Assembly (NCBI GenBank): GCA_030603365.1
Contig: JAUVXV010000007.1
Span: forward strand, 76,616 to 140,615
Direction of reading: 5' to 3'
From: Candidatus Heimdallarchaeota archaeon
GTDB taxonomy: Archaea; Asgardarchaeota; Heimdallarchaeia; Heimdallarchaeales; Heimdallarchaeaceae
Length of the DNA stretch: 64,000 bases
The position numbers were made by a program, and so were the translations under genes. Positions 7,957-24,596 of the stretch are shown here, in pieces; the first letter of the stretch is position 1, and each line of letters starts with the position of its first letter. The notes beneath the pieces are model-generated. The model was not told the origin of the DNA and did not search any database. It saw only the letters and a list, made by a program, of their open reading frames with translations.

Positions 7957-8568
7957 TTGATGATACAAAATATAATTATAACACATCATAGTGGGCTACC
8001 TCTTTTTGGACGATCGTTAATGTGCCATATAGGAGTGCATTGTGCAGATTTATCAAAGGATAACACATTTACAGATGAAACTTTGTTGAATTCTGCTCTA
8101 TTAAATGCAATGCTTATTTTTGATCAAGCAAATCCTAATGATTTCCATGAATTTGAAATGGAAAAAGCAAAAACGCTAACATTTCCCACAGAAAAAATTA
8201 CTGTTATAATGTATGCAGATCCAGAAGACAATTTAGAACAATATAAGAACAGATTAAGATTGTTTGCTGACTTGTTTACAAAGCAATATGGGTATCTTCT
8301 AGATGATTTCTCCGGAGATGTCAGCCCATTTGGAGATTTTCAGAATATTATTGTAAAGGAAGGCTTACTTGAAGAAGGAGAAAGATTCAGGAAAAATTGT
8401 GTTGAGTGTACTTATGACAAACATTGTGCATTTAGAATCACTGTTGCCGCACCCAATAAAACATTTAAAGAGATTTTTGATTCTATTTATCCAAGTAGCA
8501 TCTTCAAGAAAATGTGGTTGATTCTTATTGGTATGTTTAAGCCAAAATATTTTCCATTATATTCTTAA
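7957..8568 (+). CDS. Hypothetical protein with an N-terminal roadblock/longin-like module
   Basis: The sequence MIQNIIITHHSGLPLFGRSL...LLNSALLNAMLIFDQ...ITVIMYADPEDN follows the same pattern (beta hairpin, SG-x-P, LL-SGL/A-F helix) as the modules at 13906, 16173 and 35741. The ATG at 7960 is an alternative start. Confidence 0.5.
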   Translation: MMIQNIIITHHSGLPLFGRSLMCHIGVHCADLSKDNTFTDETLLNSALLNAMLIFDQANPNDFHEFEMEKAKTLTFPTEKITVIMYADPEDNLEQYKNRLRLFADLFTKQYGYLLDDFSGDVSPFGDFQNIIVKEGLLEEGERFRKNCVECTYDKHCAFRITVAAPNKTFKEIFDSIYPSSIFKKMWLILIGMFKPKYFPLYS

Positions 8569-9569
8569 TTAGCTTTATTCCTTTTGTTAGTTTTCTTATT
8601 CTTTCTATAATAAGGAGAACGAAATATAAGAAATAATTGTGCTAATGGACTAACCAAACCTATGAGGAATCTACGGAATTTTATACGACTTTCGAACTCT
8701 TTTGCAAAGCCTTCCATCGTATATCTTTGATATTGTAAAATTCCTTGAGAATCGTCAGTATACAACCAGTCTGTGTGAAACCAATCTTTATCATGTTGAG
8801 GTTCTTTAAAACATTCTCTGGGGATAGGACCAACTCCAAAAGATTTTAACAATCTTGTTATATATTCACCAGCAAGCATTTGACATTTTTCTCCCCCTGC
8901 TAAATTCATTATTTTGTGATTGATATCTACATTAATTGCATTCACACATGCTAACCCAACATCCCAAGTATGAATAAATTCTAATCGTTGATCGAAAGGT
9001 ACTTCAAACATCAGAGAAGGTATTTTCATTGGCATTCTGAGTGAAGGAACAGCTGTTAATCGCAAAATTATCCAATCTAAGGAACTTGCTTGAAGAATTT
9101 TTTCCATTTCCCATTTCTGAAAAGCATAAAGATCATGAGAGATAGGTACTATTTCATCTGTAACATATCTTGGGGGAGGCATATGCATTTTAGAGCCATA
9201 GATAGCTAAAGAACTAGTAAAGATGATTTTAGGTTTCTTCTCAAGTTTTTCAGCTGCATCAACAAGATTCTTCATACCCCCTGCATTAACCTCGGTAGCA
9301 TAATCTGGATTTTCATCAGCTTCGGGAGGAATAATTGCTGCTAGATGGATTACATAATCCACGTCTTGTACGATTCTTTCTACATCTGTTTTGTTTCGAA
9401 TATCTCCCCAAATAGTCTTAAAATTACCTTTCTTTGACATGATTTTTTGAATTTTTTTAGTATGTTTAGTCTTCTTATCAAAACATCTAACATCATATCC
9501 ACGTTCTAATAGAAGTCCTAGTGTACTCTCACCTACATTCCCAAATGGACCTGTTAATAAAATCTTCAT
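8565..9569 (-). CDS. NAD-dependent epimerase/dehydratase (extended SDR) family protein
   Basis: The N-terminus MKILLTGPFGNVGESTL is a glycine-rich NAD-binding motif. The protein has SDR-like length and layout. Confidence 0.8.
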   Translation of the reverse strand: MKILLTGPFGNVGESTLGLLLERGYDVRCFDKKTKHTKKIQKIMSKKGNFKTIWGDIRNKTDVERIVQDVDYVIHLAAIIPPEADENPDYATEVNAGGMKNLVDAAEKLEKKPKIIFTSSLAIYGSKMHMPPPRYVTDEIVPISHDLYAFQKWEMEKILQASSLDWIILRLTAVPSLRMPMKIPSLMFEVPFDQRLEFIHTWDVGLACVNAINVDINHKIMNLAGGEKCQMLAGEYITRLLKSFGVGPIPRECFKEPQHDKDWFHTDWLYTDDSQGILQYQRYTMEGFAKEFESRIKFRRFLIGLVSPLAQLFLIFRSPYYRKNKKTNKRNKAN

Positions 9570-9865
9570 AAACTAATCCTCTGGCTAGGTTTCAGAGACA
9601 AAAGTTCTTTTATTTAATATTTGCTCTGAAATGATTTTGGTTTTTTAGAATTAGTATTCCAATAAAAGAAAAATGAAGGAAGAATGAATACTCTAGTAGT
9701 GATGGTGTGATAGTTAAATTTCCTTTTTTCTTTTTTTTAGTTTTTTGTTAGACAGTCCCAAACACTTTAATCTCATCATTTTTATCGGATTCCTTCTCCT
9801 GTGCAAAAGATTTAAATTCCATAAGTGTATAGTTTAACGATTCAATCATCTTGATAGGTTAGAAT

Positions 9866-11128
9866 ATGAAAAGGCAATCAAAACAATCCAAAGTTTCAAT
9901 TAGAAGATTTTTGTGTGTTTTATTTTTAATTTTAGGAATAAGTATATTCTCAAGTATGAGAGTAAATTCTACAACTATACCTTCTAACCCACCATCTTAC
10001 TCCTCACTTACCCCACATGATCCTATATCCATTAGTTCTGATAGTTACTTTGCGATTTTTCCAGGAACAGGAACGAAAGAAGATCCTTATGTTATTGAAG
10101 GATATGAAATTATAACATCACAAAATAGAGGTATTTATATCACTGGCACAACGAAACATTTTACTGTTCGTAACTGCTATGTTGAAGCAAGATGGAGTGG
10201 CATTTATATCGGTACTGTAGCTGATGGAACTGCAACTGTCATCAACAACACTTGTAACAACAATGAAAACGGCATCAATCTTCACTCTTCTGATTGTGTC
10301 GTTACTTACAATCTTGTACAAAAAAATATAGACTATGGAATCTGTCTATCTTCTTCTGCTGACAACAACATTATTCACCATAATATTTTCGTAGATAATA
10401 ACTTAGGAAGTTCTTCTCAAGCTATTGATAATGGAAAGAAAAACAAATGGTATGACACTGAGACAAAAGAAGGGAATTATTGGTCAGACTTGGGAGATGA
10501 ATGTACATATAAAATTGATGGTGATGCTCATTCTAAAGATTTATATCCATTAAACAGAGCACAATCTTGCCTAAATCCTATTACTATGACAATACTCACT
10601 ATTGTCCTACCTTTACTAGTTGGAGTTGCTATTCTGGCGTTTGTAGTACCGAAGTATGCCATTCCCTATACTCGAAAAACCATCATACCCTATTTTCGCA
10701 AAAGAAAAGCTGAAAGACAAGATCGAATAGCAAAATTGTTGTTCTGTCCTAACTGCAGGAATAGTGTTAAATTATCTTCAACATTCTGTGAAAACTGTGG
10801 AACAACTCTTCCAAAGAGAAAGAGATTCGTACTCAGCAGAAAAAGAATGTTACTCTATAAAAGTAAATTAATAGAAAGTTCTAATGAAGAATTGATGAAA
10901 CAGCTGATAATTAATATTGTCATAGCTATTCTTTTTGTATTGGTAATCTCTACTGAAATAGTTTTTGTGATAATTCTGGGGGGTTTTTTAGCTGCTCATG
11001 GTGGGCCTGGTTTTTTAATCGGAGGAATTATTTTAGCACCAATCTTGATAATGCCGCTCATCTTTTTCACCATTCCTAGATTTGCTGCTTTATTGTCAGA
11101 GAAAAAGACAAGGAGAAGAAAGAAATAG
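9866..11128 (+). CDS. Membrane protein with an extracellular right-handed beta-helix (PbH1/NosD-like) domain, a TM helix, a cytoplasmic zinc ribbon and a C-terminal TM bundle
   Basis: A signal/TM segment (FLCVLFLILGISIFSS) is followed by PbH1-like repeats (GIYITGT..., NGINLHSS..., YGICLSSS..., NNIIHHNIF). Next come a TM helix (MTILTIVLPLLVGVAILAFVV), a zinc ribbon (CPNCRNSVKLSSTFCENCG) and further hydrophobic helices. Confidence 0.75.
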   Translation: MKRQSKQSKVSIRRFLCVLFLILGISIFSSMRVNSTTIPSNPPSYSSLTPHDPISISSDSYFAIFPGTGTKEDPYVIEGYEIITSQNRGIYITGTTKHFTVRNCYVEARWSGIYIGTVADGTATVINNTCNNNENGINLHSSDCVVTYNLVQKNIDYGICLSSSADNNIIHHNIFVDNNLGSSSQAIDNGKKNKWYDTETKEGNYWSDLGDECTYKIDGDAHSKDLYPLNRAQSCLNPITMTILTIVLPLLVGVAILAFVVPKYAIPYTRKTIIPYFRKRKAERQDRIAKLLFCPNCRNSVKLSSTFCENCGTTLPKRKRFVLSRKRMLLYKSKLIESSNEELMKQLIINIVIAILFVLVISTEIVFVIILGGFLAAHGGPGFLIGGIILAPILIMPLIFFTIPRFAALLSEKKTRRRKK

Positions 11129-11445: not shown

Positions 11446-13014
11446 TTATCCTCTGATTTCTTCAACGACATATTTGTGCTTGAACTTACCAAATAAACGA
11501 ACTTTTAGTAGAAGTCCAGCTACACCAATTATCGGAAAAACAGGTAAGAAGGATAAGGTAAGATACAGTGTTCCAATGAAAATGGGTGTTTTAATCATTA
11601 CTAGAAGAGACAGAAGCATACCAATTACTATTGTTCCGAAGAAATATGGAATTTTAGATTTCATCTTGTCTCTTTCGTTGATTGGTAGAGCTGCCATGAT
11701 TGTTTCTCCTCCCGTTTCTATAGTTGTTGTACTAACAATCATGGCCATTGTATTTGTCAGTACATAAATCATCATGATAATAAAATATGCAGTTACTGTC
11801 GTGTTTCCATAGATTACATGAAAGTCTTCAACATAACCAGTAAGTGCAGTATAAATTGGCATCATAATCGGTAATATGAGAACAACAATTTGTTGCATTT
11901 CTCTTGTGACAATTGAAAGATCACGTTTCATAAAAGCCCTAACTGGAGGAAGATTTTTAGTAGAAATGTCTTCTACTTTTGTTTTTCTTCTTATGATTTC
12001 CTTTCTTTTTATTTCAGGAGATGAAATGTTTCTTAATATAGTAAGAGCTTTTCTAATTACTAAGAAAGTAATTAAACAATAGAATAAAAATCCAATAACA
12101 GAACCAACTATTGTTAGTGGGGCTACACCGTTAAAATCTAAAACAAACATTGATAGTAGATATCCACTTGAGAAAGGATATGGAACAAACGAAAGTATGT
12201 TACTAATTAAGGTTGAATCTTTAATAGATAATCCGTTCAAGCCATAAAAAGCATCTAAATTCTGTATACCAATATTTACTGCTCCTATAATAAACATTGA
12301 CACAAAGAAATAAGCAAACATGGTTCCAATTCGAATAAAACTTGCTTTTTTTGATGCAAAATCATACTCTTCCATCACAATAGCTAGTTTTCGTGATAAG
12401 ATAACCAATATACCAATGTTAAAACATGTGTTAACCAAAGAAAGAACTATACTTATTAGAAGAATAGCAACTATTTTCCAGATACTAATATAAGGTCCAA
12501 TTGTCAAGCTTATAACTACAGTCATTCCAATCGGTAAGACAAGTGTCATGGCAATTAGTTGAACATTGATACTTCTAACGAAAGTTAGTAAACCTATTTT
12601 TTCGATTTCCTTTCTGCTGAATGGGAGTGTGTGTATCCATTCGTAAGGTCCACCAGACATTATTCCCCAAGCTAGCATTAAAGCAAATACAACCAGAATT
12701 ACAAGTTGAACAAAGAAGAAGGCACCATTAACAATACCACTAGCAAAATTAAGCCATTCAAATGAAGAACCTTCAGATAATTGTCGATACATTGAAGAGA
12801 CTGAAACAATAGGGATAAAAGTTAGTGAAGCGATATATATTGTTGCTAGAAATTTATAGATTATATCTGGAGATCTTGCTATTCTATCTTTTTCAATTCT
12901 TTCCAGATATCTCTGCTGATTACTTCCAGCAGATTGAAGTTGAGCGTGAAGCACCGCTTCTTTATAGACTCTTTTAGAAGCTTTGTACAGTTCTTTATTT
13001 CTCAGAAGAATCAC
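11446..13014 (-). CDS. ABC transporter permease (multi-pass, ABC-2-like exporter component)
   Basis: 522 aa, with many hydrophobic helices. It has a 4-nt start/stop overlap with the upstream ATPase gene. Confidence 0.75.
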   Translation of the reverse strand: MILLRNKELYKASKRVYKEAVLHAQLQSAGSNQQRYLERIEKDRIARSPDIIYKFLATIYIASLTFIPIVSVSSMYRQLSEGSSFEWLNFASGIVNGAFFFVQLVILVVFALMLAWGIMSGGPYEWIHTLPFSRKEIEKIGLLTFVRSINVQLIAMTLVLPIGMTVVISLTIGPYISIWKIVAILLISIVLSLVNTCFNIGILVILSRKLAIVMEEYDFASKKASFIRIGTMFAYFFVSMFIIGAVNIGIQNLDAFYGLNGLSIKDSTLISNILSFVPYPFSSGYLLSMFVLDFNGVAPLTIVGSVIGFLFYCLITFLVIRKALTILRNISSPEIKRKEIIRRKTKVEDISTKNLPPVRAFMKRDLSIVTREMQQIVVLILPIMMPIYTALTGYVEDFHVIYGNTTVTAYFIIMMIYVLTNTMAMIVSTTTIETGGETIMAALPINERDKMKSKIPYFFGTIVIGMLLSLLVMIKTPIFIGTLYLTLSFLPVFPIIGVAGLLLKVRLFGKFKHKYVVEEIRG

Positions 13015-13838
13015 TTCTTTTTATCATTATGAAACATCTTCCTAAGATTTTGAATAATATGATTCACTGACTCATCTTGTTGAGTTAGTTTAAGAAAAAT
13101 CGTTTCCAGATCAGCACCTGCCTTATCTGCCAGTTCTGAGAGTTCTTTTACTGTACCTAAAGCAACAAGTTTACCTCTATCCAGGATAGCTATTCTATCA
13201 CACATATCCTCTGCAATTTCAAGAATGTGTGTAGAAAAAATAACTGATCCTCCTCTTTCACTATGAAGTTCTATAATCTCTTTTACGACTTTGGCAGATT
13301 TCGCATCTAAACCTGTAAGTGGTTCATCTAGAATTAGTAAATCTGGATCATGAATTAAAGAGGCTATAACTTGCATCTTCTGTTTATTTCCTCGAGAAAG
13401 TGTAGCTACAAGTTTTTCATAATATTCAACAGCCTCCAAACTCTCTAGATAATAACGAAGCTTTTCTGTGGTTTCAGCTTCATCTAAATTACGTATTGAA
13501 GTAATGAAATCAAATAACATTCGAGGTGTCATTGACTTATAGATTAGAGGATCTTCTGAAACATATCCTAGTCTTTTTTTAATCTCTATTTCTTCTTTCT
13601 CAGGATGGAGTCCGAAAACCTCAATATCACCTTGATCTAATTCCAGAAGCCCTAAAAGCAATTTCACAGTTGTAGTTTTACCTGCTCCATTGGGTCCTAA
13701 CAACCCAAATATTTCTCCAGGTTTGACTTCAAAAGACAAATTATTTACAGCTACAACGTCACCAAAACTCTTAGTAATATTTTGTACTTTAACCATTGGT
13801 TCTAATTCAACATTCATCACAATCTTCCCACAAGACAA
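13011..13838 (-). CDS. ABC transporter ATP-binding protein
   Basis: Walker A is GPNGAGKTT, the signature motif is LSRGNKQKMQV, Walker B is LLILDEP, and the H-loop is STH. Confidence 0.95.
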   Translation of the reverse strand: MSCGKIVMNVELEPMVKVQNITKSFGDVVAVNNLSFEVKPGEIFGLLGPNGAGKTTTVKLLLGLLELDQGDIEVFGLHPEKEEIEIKKRLGYVSEDPLIYKSMTPRMLFDFITSIRNLDEAETTEKLRYYLESLEAVEYYEKLVATLSRGNKQKMQVIASLIHDPDLLILDEPLTGLDAKSAKVVKEIIELHSERGGSVIFSTHILEIAEDMCDRIAILDRGKLVALGTVKELSELADKAGADLETIFLKLTQQDESVNHIIQNLRKMFHNDKKK

Positions 13839-13905: not shown

Positions 13906-15315
13906 TTAAATCAGCTTCATTAAAAGAGGATTACGCTTAAGTGCTAATCCTATTGCCTTATTTACAAAACTTTTAGGAAAACCTGAATGCTCGAATAAAT
14001 TTTGAAAAAGTAATTCTGCTTGCTCTTGCGAATAAAGAGAGAATGAAGTGATAATATATGACATTGAAACTAGTTTTCTTAATTCATTAAAGATTTCAAT
14101 TGCAGTTTTATTAATATCTTTATCAATATTCTTCTCATATAATCCAAAAAAGTACTCACTTGCTTGATGACCTTTAACACTACCTTCAATGAGATTGATA
14201 ACAACTATCTCACCAAGCTGATTTTTTGTTAGGATAAGTTTATCAAAGAGTTCTTTGTTCATCCCACATAATCCAACATCAAGTTCTGAAACAATATTAA
14301 TTGCATCTTCTTCATTATCTACCCATCCTTTAACTTTTATTGCGAGGTGTTGGTTGAAAATTGAGAGTGTATCAATTGTTATCTTAACTGTTAATTTATC
14401 ACCTACAACAATCACTTTTTTTCCTGTTGTTACGGAATACAATACTTGATCTAGATTTTTTAATATAGCATTTGAAAGATACGCTAATGATAATTCCTCA
14501 ACATCGGTATGAGTAAAATGGTTCCCAGAATCTTCTATATTTTGAATAAGATCGAGAACATCTAACATTTCAAATCTATAATCTTGATCAGATAGAATAC
14601 GCAGTTTCTCCTCAATCAAAGGAAACAATCTGAAAACTGTATGATCTAACTCTGGAGAAAACCTCAGTATTCCTACGTTTGTCCTCATTTCATCCTTCTC
14701 AATAACTAATAGTTCTGAAGTTTTTTTCTCAGGAACAAATAACAGAAGTCCTGTTAACTGATTTTCAAAATCATATTTGATTCTATGGTTAATAATCATA
14801 TCAAGTGTTTCTTTGGCTTCTACTTTTTTACCAACAGATTCAATTATTTCAGTGTCTGTTTCATCAAAATGAATCAAACTAAACACCTTGGGTTCTGATT
14901 CTCGTAAAGGATTTTTAGAGAAGAATAGAGGTAAATTGTAGATATCATGCAAAATGTGTTCGAGTATTAGAGCTGCTTCTCCTTCAGAAATCAGATTTTC
15001 ATCCCTATCTTCAAGCAAAGGACTTGCACTGAAATGAATTTGTTCCAGGATTTGTTCAAGATGTCGCTCTGAGAATAGAGTTTCTTCTACTTTAGTTTCA
15101 AGAATAAAAATAAAATCATAAACTTCAACAAAGGAGATGTTTTTGTCATGATAAGAAATTGATTGAAGTTCTTGACGGTGAACTTCTTTAGCGAAAGTGA
15201 TAATTGCACTAATCAAACCTGAGGCTAAGATGTGCCTAGTATCATCAGCTGATTCGGGTTTAGTAGCTAACAACAATCCTGAACCTGAAACCAGTGAAAG
15301 TTGCAAGTTTCGCAT
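13906..15315 (-). CDS. Hypothetical protein (469 aa) with an N-terminal roadblock/longin-like module; paralogue of 16173..17579
   Basis: The N-terminus LSLVSGSGLLLATKPESADDTRHILASGLISAIITFAKEV...ISFVEVYDFIFILE has a roadblock/LC7-type pattern. A second beta-alpha-beta segment spans about aa 150-260. The central block is KKVIVVGDKLTVKITIDTLSIFNQHL. Confidence 0.6.
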   Translation of the reverse strand: MRNLQLSLVSGSGLLLATKPESADDTRHILASGLISAIITFAKEVHRQELQSISYHDKNISFVEVYDFIFILETKVEETLFSERHLEQILEQIHFSASPLLEDRDENLISEGEAALILEHILHDIYNLPLFFSKNPLRESEPKVFSLIHFDETDTEIIESVGKKVEAKETLDMIINHRIKYDFENQLTGLLLFVPEKKTSELLVIEKDEMRTNVGILRFSPELDHTVFRLFPLIEEKLRILSDQDYRFEMLDVLDLIQNIEDSGNHFTHTDVEELSLAYLSNAILKNLDQVLYSVTTGKKVIVVGDKLTVKITIDTLSIFNQHLAIKVKGWVDNEEDAINIVSELDVGLCGMNKELFDKLILTKNQLGEIVVINLIEGSVKGHQASEYFFGLYEKNIDKDINKTAIEIFNELRKLVSMSYIITSFSLYSQEQAELLFQNLFEHSGFPKSFVNKAIGLALKRNPLLMKLI

Positions 15316-15409
15316 AGTTATTTCATTTAAAGTATCATTTAAGTAAATTTCTTTAGTGCTAATCCATTGAGAAAGATTTTTTTTTGGAAAGAAAATATCT
15401 TAATCCCGA

Positions 15410-16165
15410 ATGAAAACTAGCACTATCCTCTATCAAGAACTAGTTCATAATGCTTGGGCTGCAGAGCATAATGTTCTCTATAAAGGATGGATATTAAGAC
15501 TATCAGAAGGGATTACACAAAGAGCAAATAGTGTTCTAACAATCAGATATCTGGGAAATGATGTAATAACTGATATTCGTAATATAGAAAATATATTTCA
15601 GAGTAGAAATCTTCCGCCTATTTTTCAAGTAGCAGATTATTTTGAACCTTCTAATCTAATTAAAATTTTGATTGGTGAAGGATATCATGCCAGAGATGAA
15701 ACTATAGTTATGAGTAGAAGTACTGAAATATCACAGAATATTGAAAAAAATGAAAATTTGACTTATTTGATTGAGGAAGGAGTCCCAGATATATGGTTTA
15801 AATCATTAACTAAATTTAGTTCCTCATCTGAAATAAGGATTAAAGGTATCGAGAATATAATTAGCAGATCTTCTGCAGAGAAAATAACATGTTTTGCTCA
15901 AGATGGTAATGAGATAACAGGAATAGTTTTAGGACTTAGGGAAGGAGATTATATTGGGATATATAATCTAACAGTGGATTCCCAAAGAAGAAGAGAAAGA
16001 ATCGGTAAGAGCATAATGTTGAAACTAATGGATTGGGCACACAAAAGCAATATAGGGGTGGTTTATCTTGCTGTAGAAGATGACAATGTAGGTGCTCGAA
16101 AATTATACCAAAAGCTGAATTTTGAAGAGAAATTCAAATACAGATATTTTGTTAGAGAAGAATAA
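15410..16165 (+). CDS. GNAT-family N-acetyltransferase
   Basis: The C-terminal acetyl-CoA-binding motif is RRRERIGKSIMLKLMDWA...VYLAVEDDNVGARKLYQKLNFEE. Confidence 0.8.
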   Translation: MKTSTILYQELVHNAWAAEHNVLYKGWILRLSEGITQRANSVLTIRYLGNDVITDIRNIENIFQSRNLPPIFQVADYFEPSNLIKILIGEGYHARDETIVMSRSTEISQNIEKNENLTYLIEEGVPDIWFKSLTKFSSSSEIRIKGIENIISRSSAEKITCFAQDGNEITGIVLGLREGDYIGIYNLTVDSQRRRERIGKSIMLKLMDWAHKSNIGVVYLAVEDDNVGARKLYQKLNFEEKFKYRYFVREE

Positions 16166-16172
16166 ATGAATA

Positions 16173-17579
16173 TTAGAGCAGATAGTCCAAAAGAGGGTTT
16201 CTTCTTACTGCCATTTCTAATGCTTTCTTAATAAAAGTTGAAGAATATCCTGATTGAGAACTTATCTCTTTCAATTTCTGTTTACCTTTTACTTCATCTA
16301 CTAAACTAATTGATGTCATATCAAGAGAAAGTGCTACTAGTTTTTCCAGATCTAGAGCTATTTTTGTAACTATTTCTGCTATTGATAGTTTCTTTATTGT
16401 ATCAAATAATTTTTTGAAATGATGGCTTGATTTAGCTCCAGTAACTCGACTATTTACTAGATTGATGCATACATCTGTTTCCTTAATTGTTTCACTACTT
16501 AGGAGCGCGTTATAAATTTCTGTAGACATTCCACACATTCTAGCCGAAAGATCACACTTTCCATTTTGAGAAAAATCGTCAGCAGATATCCACAAATTGA
16601 CAGAAGTTTGTAGGTGCTGTGTGAATATGGACATAGAATCAATAACAAGTTTTACTGTTGGTTTATCTCCTACAATGAAAATTGGTTCTCCAATAACTGC
16701 AGAATAAATTGCTTTATCAAGATTACGTCCTACAGTTCTAACTAAGAATGAAGGAGATAAATCCTCTAGATTTATTCTTGATAATCGATTTCCTGGATCA
16801 TCGATGTCTTTTAACGTGTTTAATATGCGTTCCATACTCAAAATTTCTTTGTCTTCTGACATTACTGAAAGCATTCTATCCATCATAGTAAACAGCCTGA
16901 ATAACACCAAATCTAATTCACGTGATATCTTTAAAATTCCTACACGAGAAGTTTTTCCATCTGTGTCAATAACAGTATATGTAGTACTCTTTTCTTCAGG
17001 TATATGTGTTAGTATTCCTTTTAACCCATTAATACATTTTTCATTTGCTTTTAAGGTATCAAGCATCAATGCAATTGTTGGTATAAATGATCCGGAACCC
17101 ACCTTATCTTTAATTTCCCAACCTTTGTCTGTATGAAATAATGTGAAATAAGCACTTTCTGACATTTTTAGAGGTTGTTCAGTGATTGAATAATGTAATA
17201 ATTGAACACCTTGTAGACATTTATCTAGAATTATAGCAGCTTCTCCTTCAGTTATTATATTTGGGTCAACTCCTTCTAGAATTGGTTCTGTACATTCTTT
17301 TAACTGTTGGAGTAATTGTCCAAGCTTTTGTTCAGAAAGTGTTGCTTCTTCATCAATAGTTTCCAAAATTAAGACGAATTCGTGTACTCTTACAAATGAA
17401 ACAGTACGATCATGATAAGAGATAGACTGTAATTCTCTATGATGTACTTCTTTAGAAAAAGAAATCAATGCTGTCATTAAGCCTGTTGCTAAAATCTGTC
17501 TTGTATCATCTACAGCTTCAGGTTTTGAAGCTAGAAGTATACCTGAAGAAGTAACAAGAGATATCTTAATGTTTAGCAT
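16173..17579 (-). CDS. Hypothetical protein (468 aa) with an N-terminal roadblock/longin-like module; paralogue of 13906..15315
   Basis: It is about 60 percent identical, by eye, to the paralogue over the first 75 aa or so (ISLVTSSGILLASKPEAVDDTRQILATGLMTALISFSKEV...). The central block is EPIFIVGDKPTVKLVIDSMSIFTQHL. Confidence 0.6.
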   Translation of the reverse strand: MLNIKISLVTSSGILLASKPEAVDDTRQILATGLMTALISFSKEVHHRELQSISYHDRTVSFVRVHEFVLILETIDEEATLSEQKLGQLLQQLKECTEPILEGVDPNIITEGEAAIILDKCLQGVQLLHYSITEQPLKMSESAYFTLFHTDKGWEIKDKVGSGSFIPTIALMLDTLKANEKCINGLKGILTHIPEEKSTTYTVIDTDGKTSRVGILKISRELDLVLFRLFTMMDRMLSVMSEDKEILSMERILNTLKDIDDPGNRLSRINLEDLSPSFLVRTVGRNLDKAIYSAVIGEPIFIVGDKPTVKLVIDSMSIFTQHLQTSVNLWISADDFSQNGKCDLSARMCGMSTEIYNALLSSETIKETDVCINLVNSRVTGAKSSHHFKKLFDTIKKLSIAEIVTKIALDLEKLVALSLDMTSISLVDEVKGKQKLKEISSQSGYSSTFIKKALEMAVRRNPLLDYLL

Positions 17580-17684: not shown

Positions 17685-17792
17685 TTATTTCATGTTCTTT
17701 TCTTGATTTCGTTTATCACGAATCTCATCTAGTACTTCAAGAGTGATGGTAGCTACACCTCTCTCCTTAGCTTGTTCTACTATTTGAGTCAT
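17685..17792 (-). CDS. Small ORF or remnant resembling a PCP_red-type domain (a small alpha-helical domain found C-terminally in protochlorophyllide reductase subunit B)
   Basis: Manual translation from the ATG gives MTQIVEQAKERGVATITLEVLDEIRDKRNQEKNMK. The frame stays open upstream to 17868 (LDSEVYWTDKACAKIVTITRVFLKKA...), with only a TTG as a possible start three codons before the ATG. Confidence 0.25.
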   Translation of the reverse strand: MTQIVEQAKERGVATITLEVLDEIRDKRNQEKNMK

Positions 17793-17886
17793 AGCTTTTT
17801 TCAAGAAAACCCTAGTAATAGTGACTATTTTTGCGCAAGCTTTATCTGTCCAATAAACCTCGGAATCTAGTCACTTGTCAATATTA

Positions 17887-18720
17887 TCAGTTCTTAGTAT
17901 TTTGTTGATATTGCATTTCAAACCAAGATTTCTTTCGTATCAACTTTCTGTACCAAGCTGGCATTACCCACCCAAGATACATTGCAACATAAGCTGTTGC
18001 ATATGAGATTGCTCGAAAAGCTGAAATTGTAATCATCAAAGCTGGAATATTAGGAATACTACCATGCAAAGCTGAAAACAACCACGCTAATAGATATAAA
18101 AACACTCCAACACTAATTGTTTGTAATCCTCTCTTTCTAATAGGGTGATCTGATTTTCTTGCAAGCCTAAAAGCTCTAAATCCTATTCTACCTGTAACAA
18201 AAATTGAGACTACTATTTGGACTAAAAGGATGGGCCAAGTATATGAAATTGCAAATACATTCTTAGTGATGTAGGTTGGTTCAGAATACAATGAATGTGT
18301 ATATATATTATCATAAGCAATTACAGCAGTAACAATACCATAAACTACCATTATTACAGCAAAAATATAGGTTTTGATAATTTCATTATCTTTTAAAATA
18401 TGTCTACAGCCAAAGAAATAGAGAAATGCAAATGCAGGGAGGATAATTAATGGAGTTAAAGACCCTATCTGATAAATAGTATCAGTCATCACACCTTCAT
18501 TGTAAATGAGCGAAATACGGTATGCAATACTAAAAGCTGATGCTAAAGAAAATAGGAAGTAGGATGAAAGTAACATGAATGTGCCTACAGTTTTCTTGCG
18601 AAAGAAGTTGACTAAGAGCGTGATAACTAGTGCTAGACTGAAAGCCATGTTTATTACAGATGTAATAATTATGAAAAATGATGCAGGTTCTATTGCTGAA
18701 AGATCTACCATCATCATCAC
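17887..18720 (-). CDS. Seven-transmembrane membrane protein, hypothetical
   Basis: 277 aa. Seven hydrophobic helices are readable in the translation. The GTG-ATG-ATG-ATG start directly abuts the TAG stop of the upstream GTPase gene. There is no Lys in helix 7, so it is not a rhodopsin. Confidence 0.7.
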   Translation of the reverse strand: MMMMVDLSAIEPASFFIIITSVINMAFSLALVITLLVNFFRKKTVGTFMLLSSYFLFSLASAFSIAYRISLIYNEGVMTDTIYQIGSLTPLIILPAFAFLYFFGCRHILKDNEIIKTYIFAVIMVVYGIVTAVIAYDNIYTHSLYSEPTYITKNVFAISYTWPILLVQIVVSIFVTGRIGFRAFRLARKSDHPIRKRGLQTISVGVFLYLLAWLFSALHGSIPNIPALMITISAFRAISYATAYVAMYLGWVMPAWYRKLIRKKSWFEMQYQQNTKN

Positions 18721-19245
18721 CTAGACAAACTCATCAACAAACCATTTGAAGGCATTGAATATTCCTTCTCCTGTCTTTGCTGAGGTTTCAAAAACTGCCC
18801 ATTTAAAAGGTAAATCCAACAACTTGAATTCTTCAATAAAGAGTGATTTTTCTATAACATCAGATTCATCACTCTTATTGAGTAAAATTAATATTATCAA
18901 ATCTTGATCCAATTGTGCGTGAATGGTTTGTTCAAACACATCCTTTGCCTCATCAAATCTCATAATATTAGATCGATCAATAACGAATACAATTCCATCA
19001 GATTTTTCGTTGATATTGTGCCACATATTTCTGAAATCTTCCTGACCAGCTAAATCAAAAACGTTAATTTGTAAATTTGGTAAGTGTAAGGTTTCTCTAT
19101 TCACACCCATAGTTGGAGTTGTTTCAACGAATTCACCAGTTTCTAGAAACTTTAGTATAGTTGTTTTACCAGCATCATCTAGACCACAGATTGTTATATC
19201 TGCATGTTTTGTTCTGCTTCGAAATAGGTTTAGTAAGAACGACAT
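18721..19245 (-). CDS. Arf/Arl/Sar-family small GTPase
   Basis: G1 is GLDDAGKTT, switch I is TPTMGVN, G3 is DLAGQ, G4 is NKSD and G5 is TSAK. The N-terminal amphipathic segment is MSFLLNLFRS. It is collinear with eukaryotic Arf1. Confidence 0.9.
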   Translation of the reverse strand: MSFLLNLFRSRTKHADITICGLDDAGKTTILKFLETGEFVETTPTMGVNRETLHLPNLQINVFDLAGQEDFRNMWHNINEKSDGIVFVIDRSNIMRFDEAKDVFEQTIHAQLDQDLIILILLNKSDESDVIEKSLFIEEFKLLDLPFKWAVFETSAKTGEGIFNAFKWFVDEFV

Positions 19246-19258
19246 ATTTTTCCCTCAA

Positions 19259-19753
19259 CTAATCCCACAAATCATCAGATAGCTTATCTATCGCATTACC
19301 ATTCTTGTCATTTCCTTGTTTTGGAAAATCAAATTTTATGGTTGACGTAGAAGTTATCTCTATTTTGAACTGTCCTTTGCTAAATCCTTTGTAAAGTTTC
19401 GGTAAAATTCCTTCCAAAGTACTGGTTGCCAATAGATCTTTCTTTTCAAGTTCTGTTACTACCCAAGAGAACACTTGTTTAATAGAAGTAGCATCATAAT
19501 CAGTCGTATTGAATACAGCAACTAATGAAGCAAGATTATCTCTTTGATCAGCAGTAGGTATGCGAAATATATAACTTGTCAAATTTAGATCATTAAAAGT
19601 CGTTGAAGCAAAATCCCCTGGGTTTGATCCCATCGGGATAGTTTTGTAAACAAGCTGACTCATTGAATCAGTAGGTATAACATCGGGGAAAGATTTGACT
19701 AACTCTAATCCCCTTGCGCCCATATTAATTAGACATAAACTTAATGGTTTCAC
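19259..19753 (-). CDS. Longin/roadblock-like (uDENN-like) domain protein, hypothetical GTPase regulator
   Basis: 164 aa with a GTG start preceded by AGGGGA. The pattern LCLINMGARGLELVKSFPD...TSYIFRIPTADQRDNLASLVAVFN...IKQVFSWVVTELEK resembles longin/uDENN folds. It sits 13 nt upstream of the GTPase gene, and a GAGGG lies in that gap. Confidence 0.5.
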   Translation of the reverse strand: MKPLSLCLINMGARGLELVKSFPDVIPTDSMSQLVYKTIPMGSNPGDFASTTFNDLNLTSYIFRIPTADQRDNLASLVAVFNTTDYDATSIKQVFSWVVTELEKKDLLATSTLEGILPKLYKGFSKGQFKIEITSTSTIKFDFPKQGNDKNGNAIDKLSDDLWD

Positions 19754-20191: not shown

Positions 20192-21610
20192 ATGGAAAAA
20201 GATTATGTTTTTGATCTATTAAACAAAGCAGTTGATCAAGGTCATAAACTTGGTGCAGACTTTTTAGAAGCTAGATATGATGATTTACAATTAACTACAA
20301 TAAATTTAACAAATGATATCATTAAACAATCCTCTTCTATAAATAGAAAAGGTATTGGTGTTATGGCTTATTATCAAGGTACACCAGGTTATAGTTTTAC
20401 TCCTGAATTAAGTTCAGAAGGTGTGGCAGAAGCTACAAAGAAAGCAGTAAAACTAGCAAAGTCAACTGATATAAGAAATAAGCTTAAGCTTGATTTTGAT
20501 AAGATTAAACCAATCAAAGATCATATAGAAGTTAAAGCTAAAAAACATCCAAAAGACTATGAATTTGATGATAAACTCGCTATGCTAAAACGAGGAGTTT
20601 CAGCCATCAAAGAACAAGTAGATGCAACAAGTACTACTGGAATGTATGGAGAGATGTATGGTGAAAAGTTCTTCATTAATTCTGAAGGATCTGAGATTTA
20701 TTGGGTTCCAATGATTGTTGACATGAGAATGGTTGCTGTTCTAATTAGTGAAGGACAACAAGCAATGGGTGCAGAAGGAATAGGAGCTTCTAAAGGTCTT
20801 GAGCACTTTGATGAAAAAGGACGTTCTCCAGAAGACTTCGGAACTATTGCAGGAAAAGACTGTAAAGATTCTTTGAACGCTGTTGCAGCTCCTACTGGCA
20901 AAACAACAACTCTTGTATCTCCTCAAATGGGAGGAGTAGTTGTTCATGAATCATTTGGTCATTTATCAGAAGCAGACTTTGTTGTTACTGGTCAATCTCC
21001 AATTGCAGATAGAGTGGGTGAACAACTTGGAAGTGAGCATGTTACAATTATCGATGAAGGCGTTCCTGAACAAGGAGGTTTGTTCTTTCCATATGATGAT
21101 CAAGGAACTAAAACTGGAAAAACCGTTCTAGTTGAAGATGGAATTCTGAAAGGATATCTTCATAATAGAGGTACTGCTAAGAAAATGAACTCTGAATTAA
21201 CTGGAAACTGCAGGGCAATAAACTTCTTGTATAATCCTATAGTACGAATGAAAAATACTTACTTTGGAGCAGGAAATCTAACTTTTGAAGAAGCTCTAGA
21301 AGAAGTAGGTACAGGAATATATGCAGTAGATATGTCTGGAGGACAAGTTGGATTAGATGGAAACTTCATGTTCAATTGTCGCAAAGGATATCTCATCGAA
21401 AATGGAGAGATAACTAAACCCATAAAAAATTCCTCTTTATCTGGAAATATTTTAGAATTACTCAAATATATTAAAGGTGCAACCAAAGATATTGAAATTC
21501 GAACTGGTTATTTTGGTGGATGTGGTAAAAATGGTCAAAATGGTTTACCTGTTGGTTTAGGTGGTCCTAATGTAATTATGGATCAAGTTCTTGTTGGAGG
21601 TGCTCAATAA
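20192..21610 (+). CDS. tldD: TldD-family metalloprotease (copy 1)
   Basis: 472 aa. The metal-binding HExxxH motif is HESFGH. The conserved C-terminus is GGCGKNGQ...PVGLGGP. Confidence 0.92.
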   Translation: MEKDYVFDLLNKAVDQGHKLGADFLEARYDDLQLTTINLTNDIIKQSSSINRKGIGVMAYYQGTPGYSFTPELSSEGVAEATKKAVKLAKSTDIRNKLKLDFDKIKPIKDHIEVKAKKHPKDYEFDDKLAMLKRGVSAIKEQVDATSTTGMYGEMYGEKFFINSEGSEIYWVPMIVDMRMVAVLISEGQQAMGAEGIGASKGLEHFDEKGRSPEDFGTIAGKDCKDSLNAVAAPTGKTTTLVSPQMGGVVVHESFGHLSEADFVVTGQSPIADRVGEQLGSEHVTIIDEGVPEQGGLFFPYDDQGTKTGKTVLVEDGILKGYLHNRGTAKKMNSELTGNCRAINFLYNPIVRMKNTYFGAGNLTFEEALEEVGTGIYAVDMSGGQVGLDGNFMFNCRKGYLIENGEITKPIKNSSLSGNILELLKYIKGATKDIEIRTGYFGGCGKNGQNGLPVGLGGPNVIMDQVLVGGAQ

Positions 21611-22986
21611 TGTCCTTAGATGATCTTAGAAATAAAATTTTGAATATTGCCGATACAACTATTAAACACTCTAGAGACTTAAATATTCCCTCAACAGAAG
21701 TATTTGTTCTAGAACAATCTACAACAAACTTAACCGATAATAAAGGTAAAGTTGATAGTAGAGATGGATTAGTTCAAGGAATAGGTATCAGAGTAGCAGT
21801 AGGTAAGAAACTAGGATTTGCAAGTTGTACAGGATTTGATGAAGAAACAATTAAATCCACTCTTAAACAAGCTCACAGTATTGCCAATGTAAGTCCTGAA
21901 AATCCAATGTTCAATGGTTTTGTAGCTGAAACCAAAATGTCAAAAGAAGGTATTTTAGACCCAGATATCCCACATCTTGATGCAGATGATCTAATCGAGA
22001 AATGCAATATTATGAATCAAGAAGTTGATCTAAGTGACAGAAGGATTATTTCAGGAAGTTTTGGTGCTAATATTGCATATCAGGGATTTGCAATTGCAAC
22101 TACTGAAGGATGCTTAGCTTCTTCTCTTCAAACAACATTTGGAGCTAATTCTTACTTTGTTGTTACTGATGCTGGAGACCGAAAAACAGCTCAAGATTTT
22201 GTAGCAGCAAGGAAAGTAGAATCAGTTGAAGGAATTGCTCCTAAAGCACTCAATAAAGCAATTAGTTCCTTGGGATCCAAAGCTTTTGGAGGATCAGAAG
22301 TTCTACCAACCATTTGGGAACCTCGTGAATCTGCTCCATTTCTAGCATTTGCATTTTTCAATGTTTTCTCAGGATCTGCTTATGTAGAAAAAAGCAATCC
22401 ATGGAAAGAAAAATTGAATGAAAAGGTGGCTGTAAAAGAATTGACTGTTATTGATGATGGTCAAAAACCTGATACTGAAGCTTGTCAATCTATTGATGCT
22501 GAAGGTACTCCAAAACAAACAACTGCTATCATAGAAGATGGAGTATTGAAGACTTTTCTATTTAATAAAATGTACGGAGATGCTGCTGGTTTTAGTACTA
22601 CAGGAAATGCACAGCGAGGAGGAATCTTTGGTGGCACACCTTACGAAAATATACCTGTTGTAGGACCAAATCAGATGATGATTAAAGAAGTCGCAAAAAA
22701 CCTTGAAGAACAGATCTCAGAAATAGATAAAGGAATTCTTATTACTGGAACACCAATTGGGTTGTTTACAGCTAATCCTGTTACAGGTGACTTCAGTGTT
22801 ACATGCAATGATACATTTCTAATTGAAAAAGGAGAAAAAGTTCATCCTCTGAAATCTATAAGTATTGCAGGGAACTACTTTGAGACCTTGAATAATATCC
22901 GTTTCATTGGAAATGACACAGAACAATCTGGATGGCCGATTGATGCTCCAAGTATGACCTTTCTGAACCATACAATCTCAGATTAA
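21610..22986 (+). CDS. pmbA: PmbA/TldE-family protein (copy 1), partner of TldD
   Basis: 458 aa. The ATG overlaps the tldD stop by 1 nt. It has a TldD/PmbA fold without HExxxH. The conserved block is GIGIRVAVGKKLGFAS. Confidence 0.9.
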   Translation: MSLDDLRNKILNIADTTIKHSRDLNIPSTEVFVLEQSTTNLTDNKGKVDSRDGLVQGIGIRVAVGKKLGFASCTGFDEETIKSTLKQAHSIANVSPENPMFNGFVAETKMSKEGILDPDIPHLDADDLIEKCNIMNQEVDLSDRRIISGSFGANIAYQGFAIATTEGCLASSLQTTFGANSYFVVTDAGDRKTAQDFVAARKVESVEGIAPKALNKAISSLGSKAFGGSEVLPTIWEPRESAPFLAFAFFNVFSGSAYVEKSNPWKEKLNEKVAVKELTVIDDGQKPDTEACQSIDAEGTPKQTTAIIEDGVLKTFLFNKMYGDAAGFSTTGNAQRGGIFGGTPYENIPVVGPNQMMIKEVAKNLEEQISEIDKGILITGTPIGLFTANPVTGDFSVTCNDTFLIEKGEKVHPLKSISIAGNYFETLNNIRFIGNDTEQSGWPIDAPSMTFLNHTISD

Positions 22987-22987
22987 A

Positions 22988-23013
22988 TTCTTCTTTTCCT
23001 TTCTTTTTTTATT
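22988..23013 (+). terminator. Oligo-T tract after pmbA copy 1
   Basis: The sequence ttcttcttttcctttctttttttatt follows the stop codon directly. Archaeal terminators are typically T-runs. Confidence 0.4.
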
Positions 23014-23037
23014 ATTTAACCAATCGGTTTTGAATAA

Positions 23038-23048
23038 TTTTATAAATA
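23038..23048 (+). promoter_or_regulatory. TATA-box-like element (TTTTATAAATA) upstream of tldD copy 2
   Basis: It lies about 125 nt upstream of the GTG at 23171 and is followed by three phased direct repeats (see findings). Confidence 0.3.
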
Positions 23049-23170
23049 TCCTAAGCATGAAAATTTCAATCCTAATCATGTTTACAAATATTCTTAACAT
23101 GATAATGTGACCGACTTGTGACCAGTTACTTAAAGTAAAGTGCTCAAACAAGTACTTATAGAAACACAAG

Positions 23171-24595
23171 GTGAAAATAGTGGAAAATGATTATGTTTTT
23201 GATCTATTACATAAAGCAGTTGATCAAGGTCATAAACTAGGTGCAGATTTTGTAGAGGCAAGGTACGATGATTTAACCTTAACAACTATAAACTATACAA
23301 ATGAAAAGGTTCGAGAATCTTCTACTAAACAACGTAGAGGAATAGGTGTTATGACATATGTCAAGGGTTCTCCCGGATATTCATTTACACCAGACATAAC
23401 TTCAGAAGCAATTCAAGAAACCACAAAACGGTCTCTTGGGATAGCAAAAGCTACTGAACCTCTTTTAACTTTTAAGCACATTTATGATGATCGATCTTCG
23501 ATCAAAGATTCAATTGTAAAGAAAGTAAAAATTCATCCTAAGGAAGTTGAATTTGACGAAAAACTTGACATGCTTAAGCGTGGAATAGCTAACGCTAAGG
23601 ATCAGGTTGATGCTCAATCTACAACAGGTATGTGGGGAGAACTCTGGGGAGATAAATTATTTGTAAACTCTGAACAATCTGAGATTTATTGGACCCCACT
23701 CTTGTTTGATCTACGTATAATGGCAGTTGCTATGACTGAAACTTCTCAAGCTCGTGGTTCTGATGGAGTAGGACAATCTCAAGGGATGGAATATTTTGAT
23801 ATTGAAGCTCACAGCCCTGAAACTCTAGGAACCAATGCTGGTAAATGGTGCAAAGAGCAAATTGATGCTGTTTCTGCTCCACCAGGAAAACATAGAGCTT
23901 TAGTAGGACCAAGAATGGCAGGTGTTCTTGCACATGAAAGTTTTGGTCACCTCTCTGAAACTGATTTTGTTATTACTGGTATGTCTCCAATTTCAGATAG
24001 AGTAGGAGAACAACTTGGAACTGAGCATGCGACTATCATTGATGAAGGTATTACAAAAGAAGGTGGATTCTTCTTACCTTATGATGATCAAGGAACTAAA
24101 ACTGGAAAAACCGTTCTAATGGACAAGGGTATGCTACTGGGTTATCTACATGATAGAAGTACAGCTAATAAAATGAATACTGAACCTACTGGAAATTCTA
24201 GAGCTATTACTTTTATGTTCCCATCGATACCAAGAATGAAAAATACTTATTTCAAGCCTGGAAACATAAGTTTTGATGAAGCTGTAGAACAAGTTGGAGA
24301 TGGTCTCTATACAGCTGGAACTTCAGGAGGTCAAACAGACCTTGATGGTACATTTCTGTTCAAATGTAGTCGTGGATACCTGATTGAAAATGGCGAGATT
24401 ACCAAACCTATCAAAGATGCTGCACTCTCAGGTCAAATTCTAGAATTCATTCAACAAATTAGTGGAGTTACAAATGAGATGGACATATTTACTAGTTACT
24501 TTGGCGGATGCGGAAAAGGTGGTCAATATCCTCTTCCAGTTGGATTAGGTGGACCTAGTCTGGTTGTTGATGAGGTTTTAGTTGGTGGTGAATGA
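23171..24595 (+). CDS. tldD: TldD-family metalloprotease (copy 2)
   Basis: 474 aa with a GTG start and the HESFGH motif. It is collinear with copy 1 throughout. Confidence 0.92.
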   Translation: MKIVENDYVFDLLHKAVDQGHKLGADFVEARYDDLTLTTINYTNEKVRESSTKQRRGIGVMTYVKGSPGYSFTPDITSEAIQETTKRSLGIAKATEPLLTFKHIYDDRSSIKDSIVKKVKIHPKEVEFDEKLDMLKRGIANAKDQVDAQSTTGMWGELWGDKLFVNSEQSEIYWTPLLFDLRIMAVAMTETSQARGSDGVGQSQGMEYFDIEAHSPETLGTNAGKWCKEQIDAVSAPPGKHRALVGPRMAGVLAHESFGHLSETDFVITGMSPISDRVGEQLGTEHATIIDEGITKEGGFFLPYDDQGTKTGKTVLMDKGMLLGYLHDRSTANKMNTEPTGNSRAITFMFPSIPRMKNTYFKPGNISFDEAVEQVGDGLYTAGTSGGQTDLDGTFLFKCSRGYLIENGEITKPIKDAALSGQILEFIQQISGVTNEMDIFTSYFGGCGKGGQYPLPVGLGGPSLVVDEVLVGGE

Positions 24596-24596
24596 A

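Follow-up and report, generated by a model that had tools for sequence, protein, structure and literature searches.

Background

Among the closest described counterparts of the proteins considered here are eukaryotic regulators of small GTPases which combine longin and DENN domains and work in pairs: C9orf72-SMCR8 and FLCN-FNIP are paralogous longin-DENN heterodimers which act as GTPase-activating proteins (GAPs) for Arf and Rag GTPases, and the tri-longin guanine nucleotide exchange factors (GEFs) that act on Rab GTPases are paralogue heterodimers as well, with their first longin domains serving as the catalytic platform. The present work concerns two neighbouring paralogous genes, A and B, on the minus strand of a 64,000-nucleotide stretch of DNA from Candidatus Heimdallarchaeota (contig JAUVXV010000007.1; the whole stretch analyzed is referred to below as the window). 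According to structural models, B consists of an N-terminal longin domain (LD1) followed by a complete DENN module (longin-DENN-dDENN), and on balance it is probable that A and B are heterodimeric longin-DENN regulators of a small GTPase, for which the Arf-like protein encoded beside them is the most accessible candidate client.

The DENN module is composed of a longin domain, then a five-stranded alpha/beta three-layer sandwich, and then the helical two-hairpin d-DENN domain (Zhang et al. 2012, PMC3521125). In the longin-type GAPs FLCN, SMCR8, C9orf72 and NPRL2, a GP motif immediately precedes longin strand 2 or coincides with its first residues, beside the arginine finger (Traffic 2025, PMC12290439), and GP-motif longins were described from Heimdallarchaeia in 2025.

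DENN proteins in Asgard archaea are already known. The main text of Liu et al. (bioRxiv 10.1101/2020.10.19.343400) reports expanded paralogous families of them in the Heimdall, Loki and Hel lineages, some being FLCN-like longin-DENN proteins (Heimdall) and some having non-eukaryotic architectures, and proposes that they are GTPase regulators, with an operon that combines a LAMTOR1-like Roadblock protein, a Rab-like GTPase and a DENN protein. The proteins described below have archaeal longin and DENN domains in common with those in that text; the operon differs, since the genes found here are those of an Arf-like GTPase, a 164-aa protein and a membrane protein, and the linkage is partial. Because Asgard DENN proteins were published in 2020/2021, A and B are a variant of an already known kind. 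The features for which no description was found are the additional LD1, the tandem pair and the adjacency to an Arf gene: neither the extra N-terminal CCZ1/INTU-like longin nor the tandem A/B pair is described in the main text of Liu et al., no prior description of a lineage-specific adjacency of A/B to an Arf cassette was found in the main texts of the key papers, and the literature search returned no paper joining tri-longin proteins with archaea.

Asgard Arf-family GTPases behave as membrane-binding switches, and their native GEFs and GAPs were left unidentified in two 2025 studies. Zhu et al. 2025, who found two C9orf72-SMCR8-like Asgard candidates and judged them to be without Arf-contacting regions, describe the native Arf regulators of Asgard archaea as yet to be found. 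The A/B locus offers candidates for such native regulators.

Results and discussion

The paralogous genes

The open reading frame (ORF) listing of the window, which is AT-rich (GC ~0.30-0.37), places two paralogous genes on the minus strand, separated by a gene on the plus strand:

13906..15315, minus strand: paralogue A, 469 aa, with the same four-domain layout as B by collinear alignment
15410..16165, plus strand: GNAT acetyltransferase of the Rv0428c type, 251 aa (PF24553, Rv0428c_C, 1.5e-16; PF00583, 1.6e-12)
16173..17579, minus strand: paralogue B, 468 aa, predicted to comprise LD1, longin, cDENN and dDENN domains (AlphaFold2, Foldseek)

An earlier sequence-only reading of this DNA had reported the 469-aa and 468-aa proteins as products of collinear same-strand genes which flank a GNAT gene, and the genes lie exactly where it placed them, the GNAT gene being on the opposite strand. 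The GNAT gene runs antisense to A and B alike: 94 nt separate it from A, from which it diverges, and 7 nt from B, with which it converges. In an end-to-end BLASTP alignment that needs one gap, A and B agree at 178/465 positions (38%; E = 2e-109, far beyond chance), and at 47 of the initial 75 residues (63%), close to the value of about 60% that had been judged by eye.

Domain architecture

Structures were predicted with AlphaFold2 for full-length B, using a 45-sequence alignment (predicted local distance difference test, pLDDT, 83.8; predicted template modelling score, pTM, 0.73), and for residues 135-468 of B alone, using a more diverse 23-sequence alignment (pLDDT 91.8, pTM 0.89). The models divide B into four predicted domains:

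17184..17579, minus strand: LD1, the N-terminal longin of B, aa 1-132, with the order beta-beta-alpha-beta-beta-beta-alpha-alpha
16854..17159, minus strand: second longin of B (LD2), the uDENN equivalent, aa 141-242, with the order beta-beta-alpha-beta-beta-beta-alpha in both models
16389..16727, minus strand: central DENN-like alpha/beta domain of B, aa ~285-397, with five strands alternating with helices, containing IFIVGDKPTVKLVIDSMSIFTQHL
16176..16388, minus strand: d-DENN-like helical domain of B, aa 398-468, with four helices in two hairpins, pLDDT 91-97

The strands of the alpha/beta domain are residues 300-303, 327-331, 348-351, 370-373 and 378-380, and the helices of the d-DENN-like domain are residues 400-426, 429-442, 447-460 and 462-467. 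A conserved central block of the sequence, VVGDKxTVK..ID..SIF.QHL (aa ~298-323), supplies the DENN domain with its first strand and helix, as had been suggested from its resemblance to the DENN core strand-helix. The N-terminal longin or roadblock module and the second beta-alpha-beta segment (aa 150-260) that had been recognized in the translated sequences are likewise borne out by the model of B, where they appear as LD1 and as the longin fold at aa 141-242; what follows the first longin in the models and in the Foldseek comparisons is a second longin and a DENN fold rather than an unrelated fold. All three structural elements that define a DENN module, the longin, the five-stranded alpha/beta domain and the all-alpha d-DENN, are present in the predicted model of B.

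Foldseek comparison of full-length B with the Protein Data Bank (PDB) gives 21 matches at E <= 1e-3, every one of which is a longin-based GTPase regulator or a sigma or zeta coat longin, led by C9orf72 (9.6e-7), DENND10, DENND1B, CCZ1, BLOC-3, DENND1A, an FLCN-complex chain and SMCR8, with global template modelling (TM) scores of 0.2-0.36. When residues 135-468 are compared alone, all 11 PDB matches at E <= 1e-3 are DENN-module proteins: C9orf72 (8e-8), DENND10, DENND1B, DENND1A, chains of the FLCN-FNIP2 complex, and SMCR8. For the crystallized DENN domain of FLCN (3v42_B), the alignment with this part of B has TMt 0.62, probability 1.00 and a root-mean-square deviation of 4.5 A over 208 columns. 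The second longin superposes on the longin lobe of DENN-module structures, and on the Lokiarchaeal longin 8yqg with a TM-score of 0.55; the d-DENN-like domain also falls within the DENN-module alignments.

The sequence-only reading had left open whether A and B are multi-longin or longin-DENN-like regulators. If they were tri-longin proteins, they would be a prokaryotic counterpart of Mon1-Ccz1, Fuzzy-Inturned or HPS1-HPS4, and presumably a heterodimeric GEF acting through the first longins. Full-length B does match CCZ1, Mon1, BLOC-3 and Fuzzy-Inturned structures (E 5e-6 to 1e-3), and profile comparisons of LD1 point in the same direction: LD1 of B matches the Pfam profile Intu_longin_1, which represents the first longin of INTU, CCZ1 and HPS4, below threshold (E 9.7e-4, 19.8 bits against a cut-off of 23.7, aa 20-94), and sub-threshold matches to this profile occur in 14 of 36 family members (best E 2.8e-4), with one member matching Fuz_longin_1, while A matches neither profile. 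In addition, LD1 is the most conserved part of the family (see below), as would be expected of a catalytic LD1 pair. Against these points stands the predicted third domain, which is a five-stranded alpha/beta domain followed by a helical bundle and not a longin. Once LD1 is removed, no Mon1, Ccz1, HPS, Fuzzy or Inturned chain is among the top 50 Foldseek matches, and only DENN proteins match significantly, which argues for a longin plus a DENN module and against a tri-longin protein; the tri-longin matches of the full-length model would then have come from LD1 and from the tandem of two longins. The family also matches the profile SMCR8_C (PF27109) and not the C-terminal profiles of Mon1 or Ccz1. 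We regard the tri-longin interpretation as very improbable, and tri-longin identity of A and B was rejected in favour of two longins followed by DENN alpha/beta and helical domains, so that of the two options that had been offered it is the longin-DENN one that is upheld, by the Foldseek matches, by the TM-score of 0.62 to 3v42_B and by SMCR8_C. The SMCR8_C matches are precomputed ones, found on many orthologues and distant relatives, mostly weak (E <= 1e-3) and strongest for the A orthologue of the locus designated L005 (E <= 1e-5); they concern relatives, since the window proteins carry no precomputed Pfam matches by design.

Comparison with eukaryotic regulators

Among the known systems to which the archaeal pair is most similar are C9orf72-SMCR8 and FLCN-FNIP, which have the same longin, DENN and d-DENN module, provide the best Foldseek matches and are also pairs of paralogues; C9orf72-SMCR8 in particular acts on an Arf-family GTPase, and profile matches to SMCR8_C occur in the archaeal family. 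The archaeal proteins differ in having an additional N-terminal longin and in being without the long disordered inserts, the GP motif and the conserved arginine finger. For the archaeal pair a heterodimer is proposed, and no WDR41-like partner was seen.

DENND1A/B and DENND10, which are monomeric Rab GEFs or adaptors, have the same uDENN-cDENN-dDENN fold (Foldseek E 1e-7 to 1e-6 over ~370-400 columns) and are likewise without the GP and arginine GAP motifs. They are ~10-12% identical to the archaeal proteins and differ in lobe orientation (TM 0.3-0.38); moreover, the archaeal proteins have the extra LD1, and their candidate client is Arf-like, not Rab. The subunits of tri-longin RabGEFs resemble the archaeal proteins in LD1, through its sub-threshold matches to the CCZ1/INTU/HPS4 first-longin profile and its position as the most conserved domain, and differ from them in that the archaeal proteins have two longins only, with a DENN region in place of a third longin at the C-terminal end.

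Conservation and GAP motifs

Conservation was computed over a 36-member family alignment. LD1 is the best-conserved part of the family: its core (aa 1-80) has a mean column entropy of 1.60 and 61% identity between A and B, compared to 2.1-2.6 and 26-39% in the remainder of the protein. The strand-helix of the central DENN block (aa 291-320), with a mean column entropy of 1.5-1.9, comes next. The most conserved stretch of all is helix alpha1 of LD1 (17444-17519, B residues ~21-45, LATGLMTALISFSKEVH), yet in the monomer model its pLDDT is below 50, a combination of conservation with low confidence that would fit a partner-dependent interface.

These alignments also bear on whether A-B is a longin-type GAP complex in the style of FLCN-FNIP, C9orf72-SMCR8 or GATOR1, in which an arginine finger would be supplied to the Arf-like or a Rag-like GTPase. 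The top structural matches, C9orf72, SMCR8 and the FLCN-FNIP2 complex chains, would suggest such a role, as would the facts that C9orf72-SMCR8 is an Arf GAP, that the pair adjoins an Arf gene, and that descriptions exist of Heimdall-group longins which have both the GP motif and an arginine finger. The sequence features of these GAPs are missing, however. No GP motif is present at the strand-2 position of either longin in any of the 36 aligned members, where LD1 has SLVTSSG-ILLAS and LD2 has FHTDKG-WEIKD. No conserved arginine is found among the invariant or >=90% conserved columns of the alignment, and R228, the one arginine that does not vary within the close family, belongs to an LD2 helix. 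The absence of an arginine finger is a negative of moderate strength. The Asgard C9orf72-SMCR8-like candidates of Zhu et al. were, as noted above, also judged to be without Arf-contacting regions. A GAP complex of this type is, in our judgement, unlikely. With neither a GP motif nor an arginine conserved throughout the family, we consider it somewhat more likely that these proteins act in a GEF-like or nucleotide-state-sensing manner (DENND-like or Mon1-Ccz1-like) than as a GAP, although this preference is a weak one.

Family distribution and the order of A and B

A word-indexed homologue search returned 47 proteins, and all those with a named source come from Heimdallarchaeota, Heimdallarchaeaceae or "Asgard group" metagenome assemblies. 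A full hidden Markov model (HMM) search of 1.84 billion cluster representatives returned 98 proteins at E <= 1e-3, which include ~30 full-length relatives of 450-520 aa and many proteins of ~345-370 aa that align over the C-terminal 190 residues only. Most of the 98 are unlabelled; the labelled ones are from Kariarchaeaceae, Heimdallarchaeota, Hodarchaeota, Promethearchaeota and Hermodarchaeota, plus one Bathyarchaeia-labelled assembly, and none of them has a eukaryotic source. Within the B orthologue group, identity is 53-80% across Heimdall-labelled metagenome assemblies.

The genomic context was followed in 36 collected loci (numbered L001 onwards), onto which the window proteins were mapped by tblastn; L021 is the same as L006, L013 the same as L004, and L003 and L024 the same as L002. 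The profile scan of the genome collection used the alignment A1 and reaches close relatives only. A neighbour-joining tree separates two orthologue clades, A and B, with the lone gene of L002 in the A clade and the lone gene of L001 in the B clade, and because these two genes fall in separate clades the duplication is taken to be old within the group. Judged by their sequences, A and B are ancient tandem paralogues, belonging to a family which, among the members found, occurs almost exclusively in Heimdall- or Asgard-labelled assemblies. In every contig that contains both, B lies upstream of A on the same strand, and in L016 and L017 the two are directly adjacent (225 nt and 62 nt apart).

The gene order has a bearing on whether A and B form a complex at all. 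They could instead be independent monomeric DENN-type regulators or effectors which acquired their own clients after the duplication (for example, the Arf-like protein for B and another GTPase or partner for A). DENND1-type GEFs act as monomers, and the DENND structures 3tw8 and 6ekk are among the Foldseek matches; divergence from genome to genome is faster for A than for B (in L017 B is 59% and A 46% identical, in L019 B 55% and A 42%); the B-clade gene of L001 and the A-clade gene of L002 each stand alone at their loci; and in the window an antisense gene separates A from B, so that the two need not be co-transcribed. What speaks for a complex is that B and A are co-directional neighbours in every contig holding both, and that LD1, the domain which typically mediates dimerization or forms the platform, is the part kept most similar between them (61%). 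Separate monomers are a doubtful alternative, but one to be taken seriously.

The GNAT gene lies antisense between B and A in 8 distinct related loci as well as in the window, and is missing from this position in L016, L017, L005, L019 and L020. The position is occupied in L005 by a co-directional 421-aa gene without a Pfam match (9479-10744), and in L019 and L020 by 1.6-2.6 kb of other DNA, and it seems to be a slot that accepts insertions. The sequence-only reading had speculated that the acetyltransferase might be functionally linked to the Arf-like protein. Acetylation of Arf by this enzyme was set aside, because the gene is antisense, encodes an enzyme of the Rv0428c type and separates A from B in a sub-clade only; it is probably not part of the system, being linked to it only by its sub-clade position.

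The adjacent Arf cassette

Upstream of B, also on the minus strand, are a gene remnant and the three genes of an Arf cassette:

17688..17870, minus strand: remnant of a 286-aa soluble protein, comprising its C-terminal ~61 codons in frame, located by tblastn
17887..18720, minus strand: multi-pass membrane protein, the third gene of the Arf cassette, 277 aa, with about six to seven hydrophobic segments
18721..19245, minus strand: Arf-like small GTPase, the candidate client, 174 aa (PF00025, 8.2e-41, profile positions 5-173 of 174)
19259..19753, minus strand: 164-aa protein, the first gene of the Arf cassette, without a Pfam match

The GTPase has a GLDDAGKTT P-loop, AGQ in switch II and an N-terminal SFLLNLFRS helix, and the Pfam scan gave no match for the membrane protein. 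The end of the last cassette gene is separated from the start of B by 307 nt, in agreement with the spacing of about 300 nt from an Arf-like operon that had been read from the sequence. The co-directional order 164-aa gene, Arf, membrane protein, 286-aa gene and B is found in 7 distinct related loci: L006, L007, L008, L010, L017, L018 and, in part, L029, where the contig ends. In the complete loci among these, the identity of B spans 57-78%. The Arf linkage is thus real but confined to one lineage.

The window retains this order, except that the 286-aa gene is reduced to the remnant, which is 75% identical to aa 226-286 of the L006 protein and has an open frame with no internal stop; the longest ORF with a start codon in it has 39 aa (TTG, 17685..17804). 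A stop-free remnant of the same gene lies upstream of the A-clade gene in L002 (9718-9864, plus strand), a locus without the Arf cassette, and suggests that the cassette was once present there as well. Two independent truncations that keep the same in-frame piece may indicate a functional mini-ORF, or an overlap with the promoter or leader of the DENN gene.

The core of the cassette can occur without the DENN genes. A more distant genome, L035, has an intact core cassette, with a 164-aa homologue, an Arf and a membrane protein at 46%, 52% and 28% identity, and because this trio has no DENN gene nearby the three-gene cassette is an independent module. The 164-aa gene precedes Arf in all cassette loci that include that end, and in L035 as well (8001-8498). 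Homologues of its product occur only in Heimdall- or Asgard-labelled assemblies, and their invariant features are MG..GLEL, GDF, R71-x-N-x-ASLVA (in the context P..R-x-N-x-ASLVA) and a C-terminal acidic-aromatic tail, DDLW (DDLWD/K). Profile-profile comparison shows no similarity between the 164-aa family and the A/B family (hhalign probability 0.2%), and a search of the PDB with the 164-aa sequence gave no match. With its invariant arginine and its constant place before Arf, the 164-aa protein is an alternative candidate partner or GAP, and possibly a longin.

Two side observations belong here. Many distant members with LD1 and DENN domains (P0052-P0073) have a C-terminal extension of ~15-20 residues with an acidic-aromatic end (…AEDYLxxF or …DxDWI), which is missing from A and B of the window; the DDLW tail of the 164-aa protein is similar to it, and a docking peptide could be common to both. 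The partial cassette locus L029 is a 3-kb contig (JBHLQZ010000269.1) labelled Candidatus Thorarchaeota, which carries the Heimdall-type Arf (82% identical), the genes for the membrane protein and the 286-aa protein, and the first part of B (65% identical); this label is probably a binning or labelling error and not a real occurrence in Thorarchaeota.

Candidate function

We propose that A and B would form a heterodimer, like FLCN-FNIP, C9orf72-SMCR8 and Mon1-Ccz1, in which the pair of LD1 longins and the first DENN strand-helix would make up a platform that binds a small GTPase and would control either its nucleotide state or its membrane recruitment, the Arf-like GTPase encoded directly upstream being the most accessible candidate client. 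Heterodimer formation and GTPase binding are proposed because the structural relatives are small-GTPase regulators or coat longins, and because eukaryotic paralogous pairs of these kinds heterodimerize. Since the pair lies beside an Arf-like GTPase cassette, it is a testable candidate regulator, and the locus as a whole offers a compact candidate set, with two DENN-module paralogues, an Arf and two further proteins, one small and one in the membrane.

A number of observations weigh against this proposal. On the structural side, the DENN assignment depends on the AlphaFold2 models, in which helix alpha1 of LD1 has a pLDDT below 50, and residues 135-468 of B reach global TM-scores of no more than 0.3-0.43 with DENN proteins, owing to differing domain orientations. 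The Pfam scan of A and B gave no family at the curated threshold (PF27109 apparently being outside the set scanned), PDB searches with the single sequences of A and B and with the family profile gave nothing relevant, and no catalytic residue is identifiable in A or B from the alignment. On the genomic side, 8 distinct loci (L004, L011, L012, L014, L015, L005, L019 and L020) have TldD/PmbA or other genes next to B and no Arf cassette upstream of it; the family HMM finds no DENN-family ORF within 8 kb of the cassette of L035; and no GTPase is directly adjacent in the distant family members L001, L031 and L032. The conserved synteny that the sequence-only reading had asked about is hence seen for the B-then-A order in every contig with both genes, and is divided for the Arf cassette, which is linked in 7 loci and not in 8. 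Adjacency alone is in any case weak functional evidence, because the whole region is broadly collinear. The shorter single-longin relatives in L033 and L034 also have no directly adjacent GTPase gene; in L001 and L033 there is an Arf-like gene at a distance of ~10 kb and ~4 kb, respectively.

A more specific version of the proposal, in which the A-B heterodimer serves the neighbouring Arf as its native exchange factor or GAP and acts with the 164-aa and membrane proteins, is tentative, and we consider it possible rather than probable. If it is true, no regulator of an archaeal Arf would have been identified before this pair, and a first longin of CCZ1/INTU-like type fused to a DENN module would suggest that the tri-longin and DENN regulators of eukaryotes descend from one ancestor. 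Irrespective of the client, the combination of these domains may bear on how the eukaryotic longin regulators diversified from archaeal precursors.

Downstream genes and other features of the window

Downstream of A, two further genes lie on the same strand, the first of them beginning 67 nt past the stop of A:

13011..13838, minus strand: ABC ATPase (Pfam ABC_tran, 1.1e-26)
11446..13014, minus strand: 12-transmembrane permease (12TM_1 match, weak)

The order A, ABC ATPase, permease recurs in the Heimdallarchaeaceae-type loci whose contig extends far enough, the exceptions being L004, where a beta-lactamase gene follows A, and L019 and L020, where the ABC match is only 25-28% identical. This recurrence, which extends to loci without the Arf cassette, together with the TldD/PmbA peptidase genes found upstream in most loci, could mean that A and B have no GTPase role and that their longin and DENN domains make them accessories or regulators of the downstream transporter or of the peptidases. 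Genes with no relation to either, such as those for an epimerase and a GFO_IDH_MocA protein further downstream, keep their order among these genomes too, however, so that the linkage of A to the transporter is probably general collinearity and may reflect shared ancestry only. The distant loci L001, L031 and L032 have neither an ABC nor a TldD neighbour, and all of the structural relatives found are GTPase regulators or coat longins. We consider an accessory function of this kind quite unlikely, and retain the proposal that A and B regulate a small GTPase.

A scan of the window for promoters and terminators gave counts at the level of shuffled sequence, the sigma-70 model being inapplicable to archaea. 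A Rag/Gtr1-type GTPase gene, which had been named as a possible client, does exist at 63583-64000 on the plus strand (Gtr1_RagA, E 1.7e-25), where the window edge cuts it off; it lies 46 kb from the A/B pair, and no linkage between them was seen. Two successive pairs of TldD/PmbA peptidase genes (20192-25964, plus strand) are divergent from the Arf cassette, the second pair being 61% and 43% identical to the first, and most of the related contigs likewise have one such pair, or two, beside the locus.

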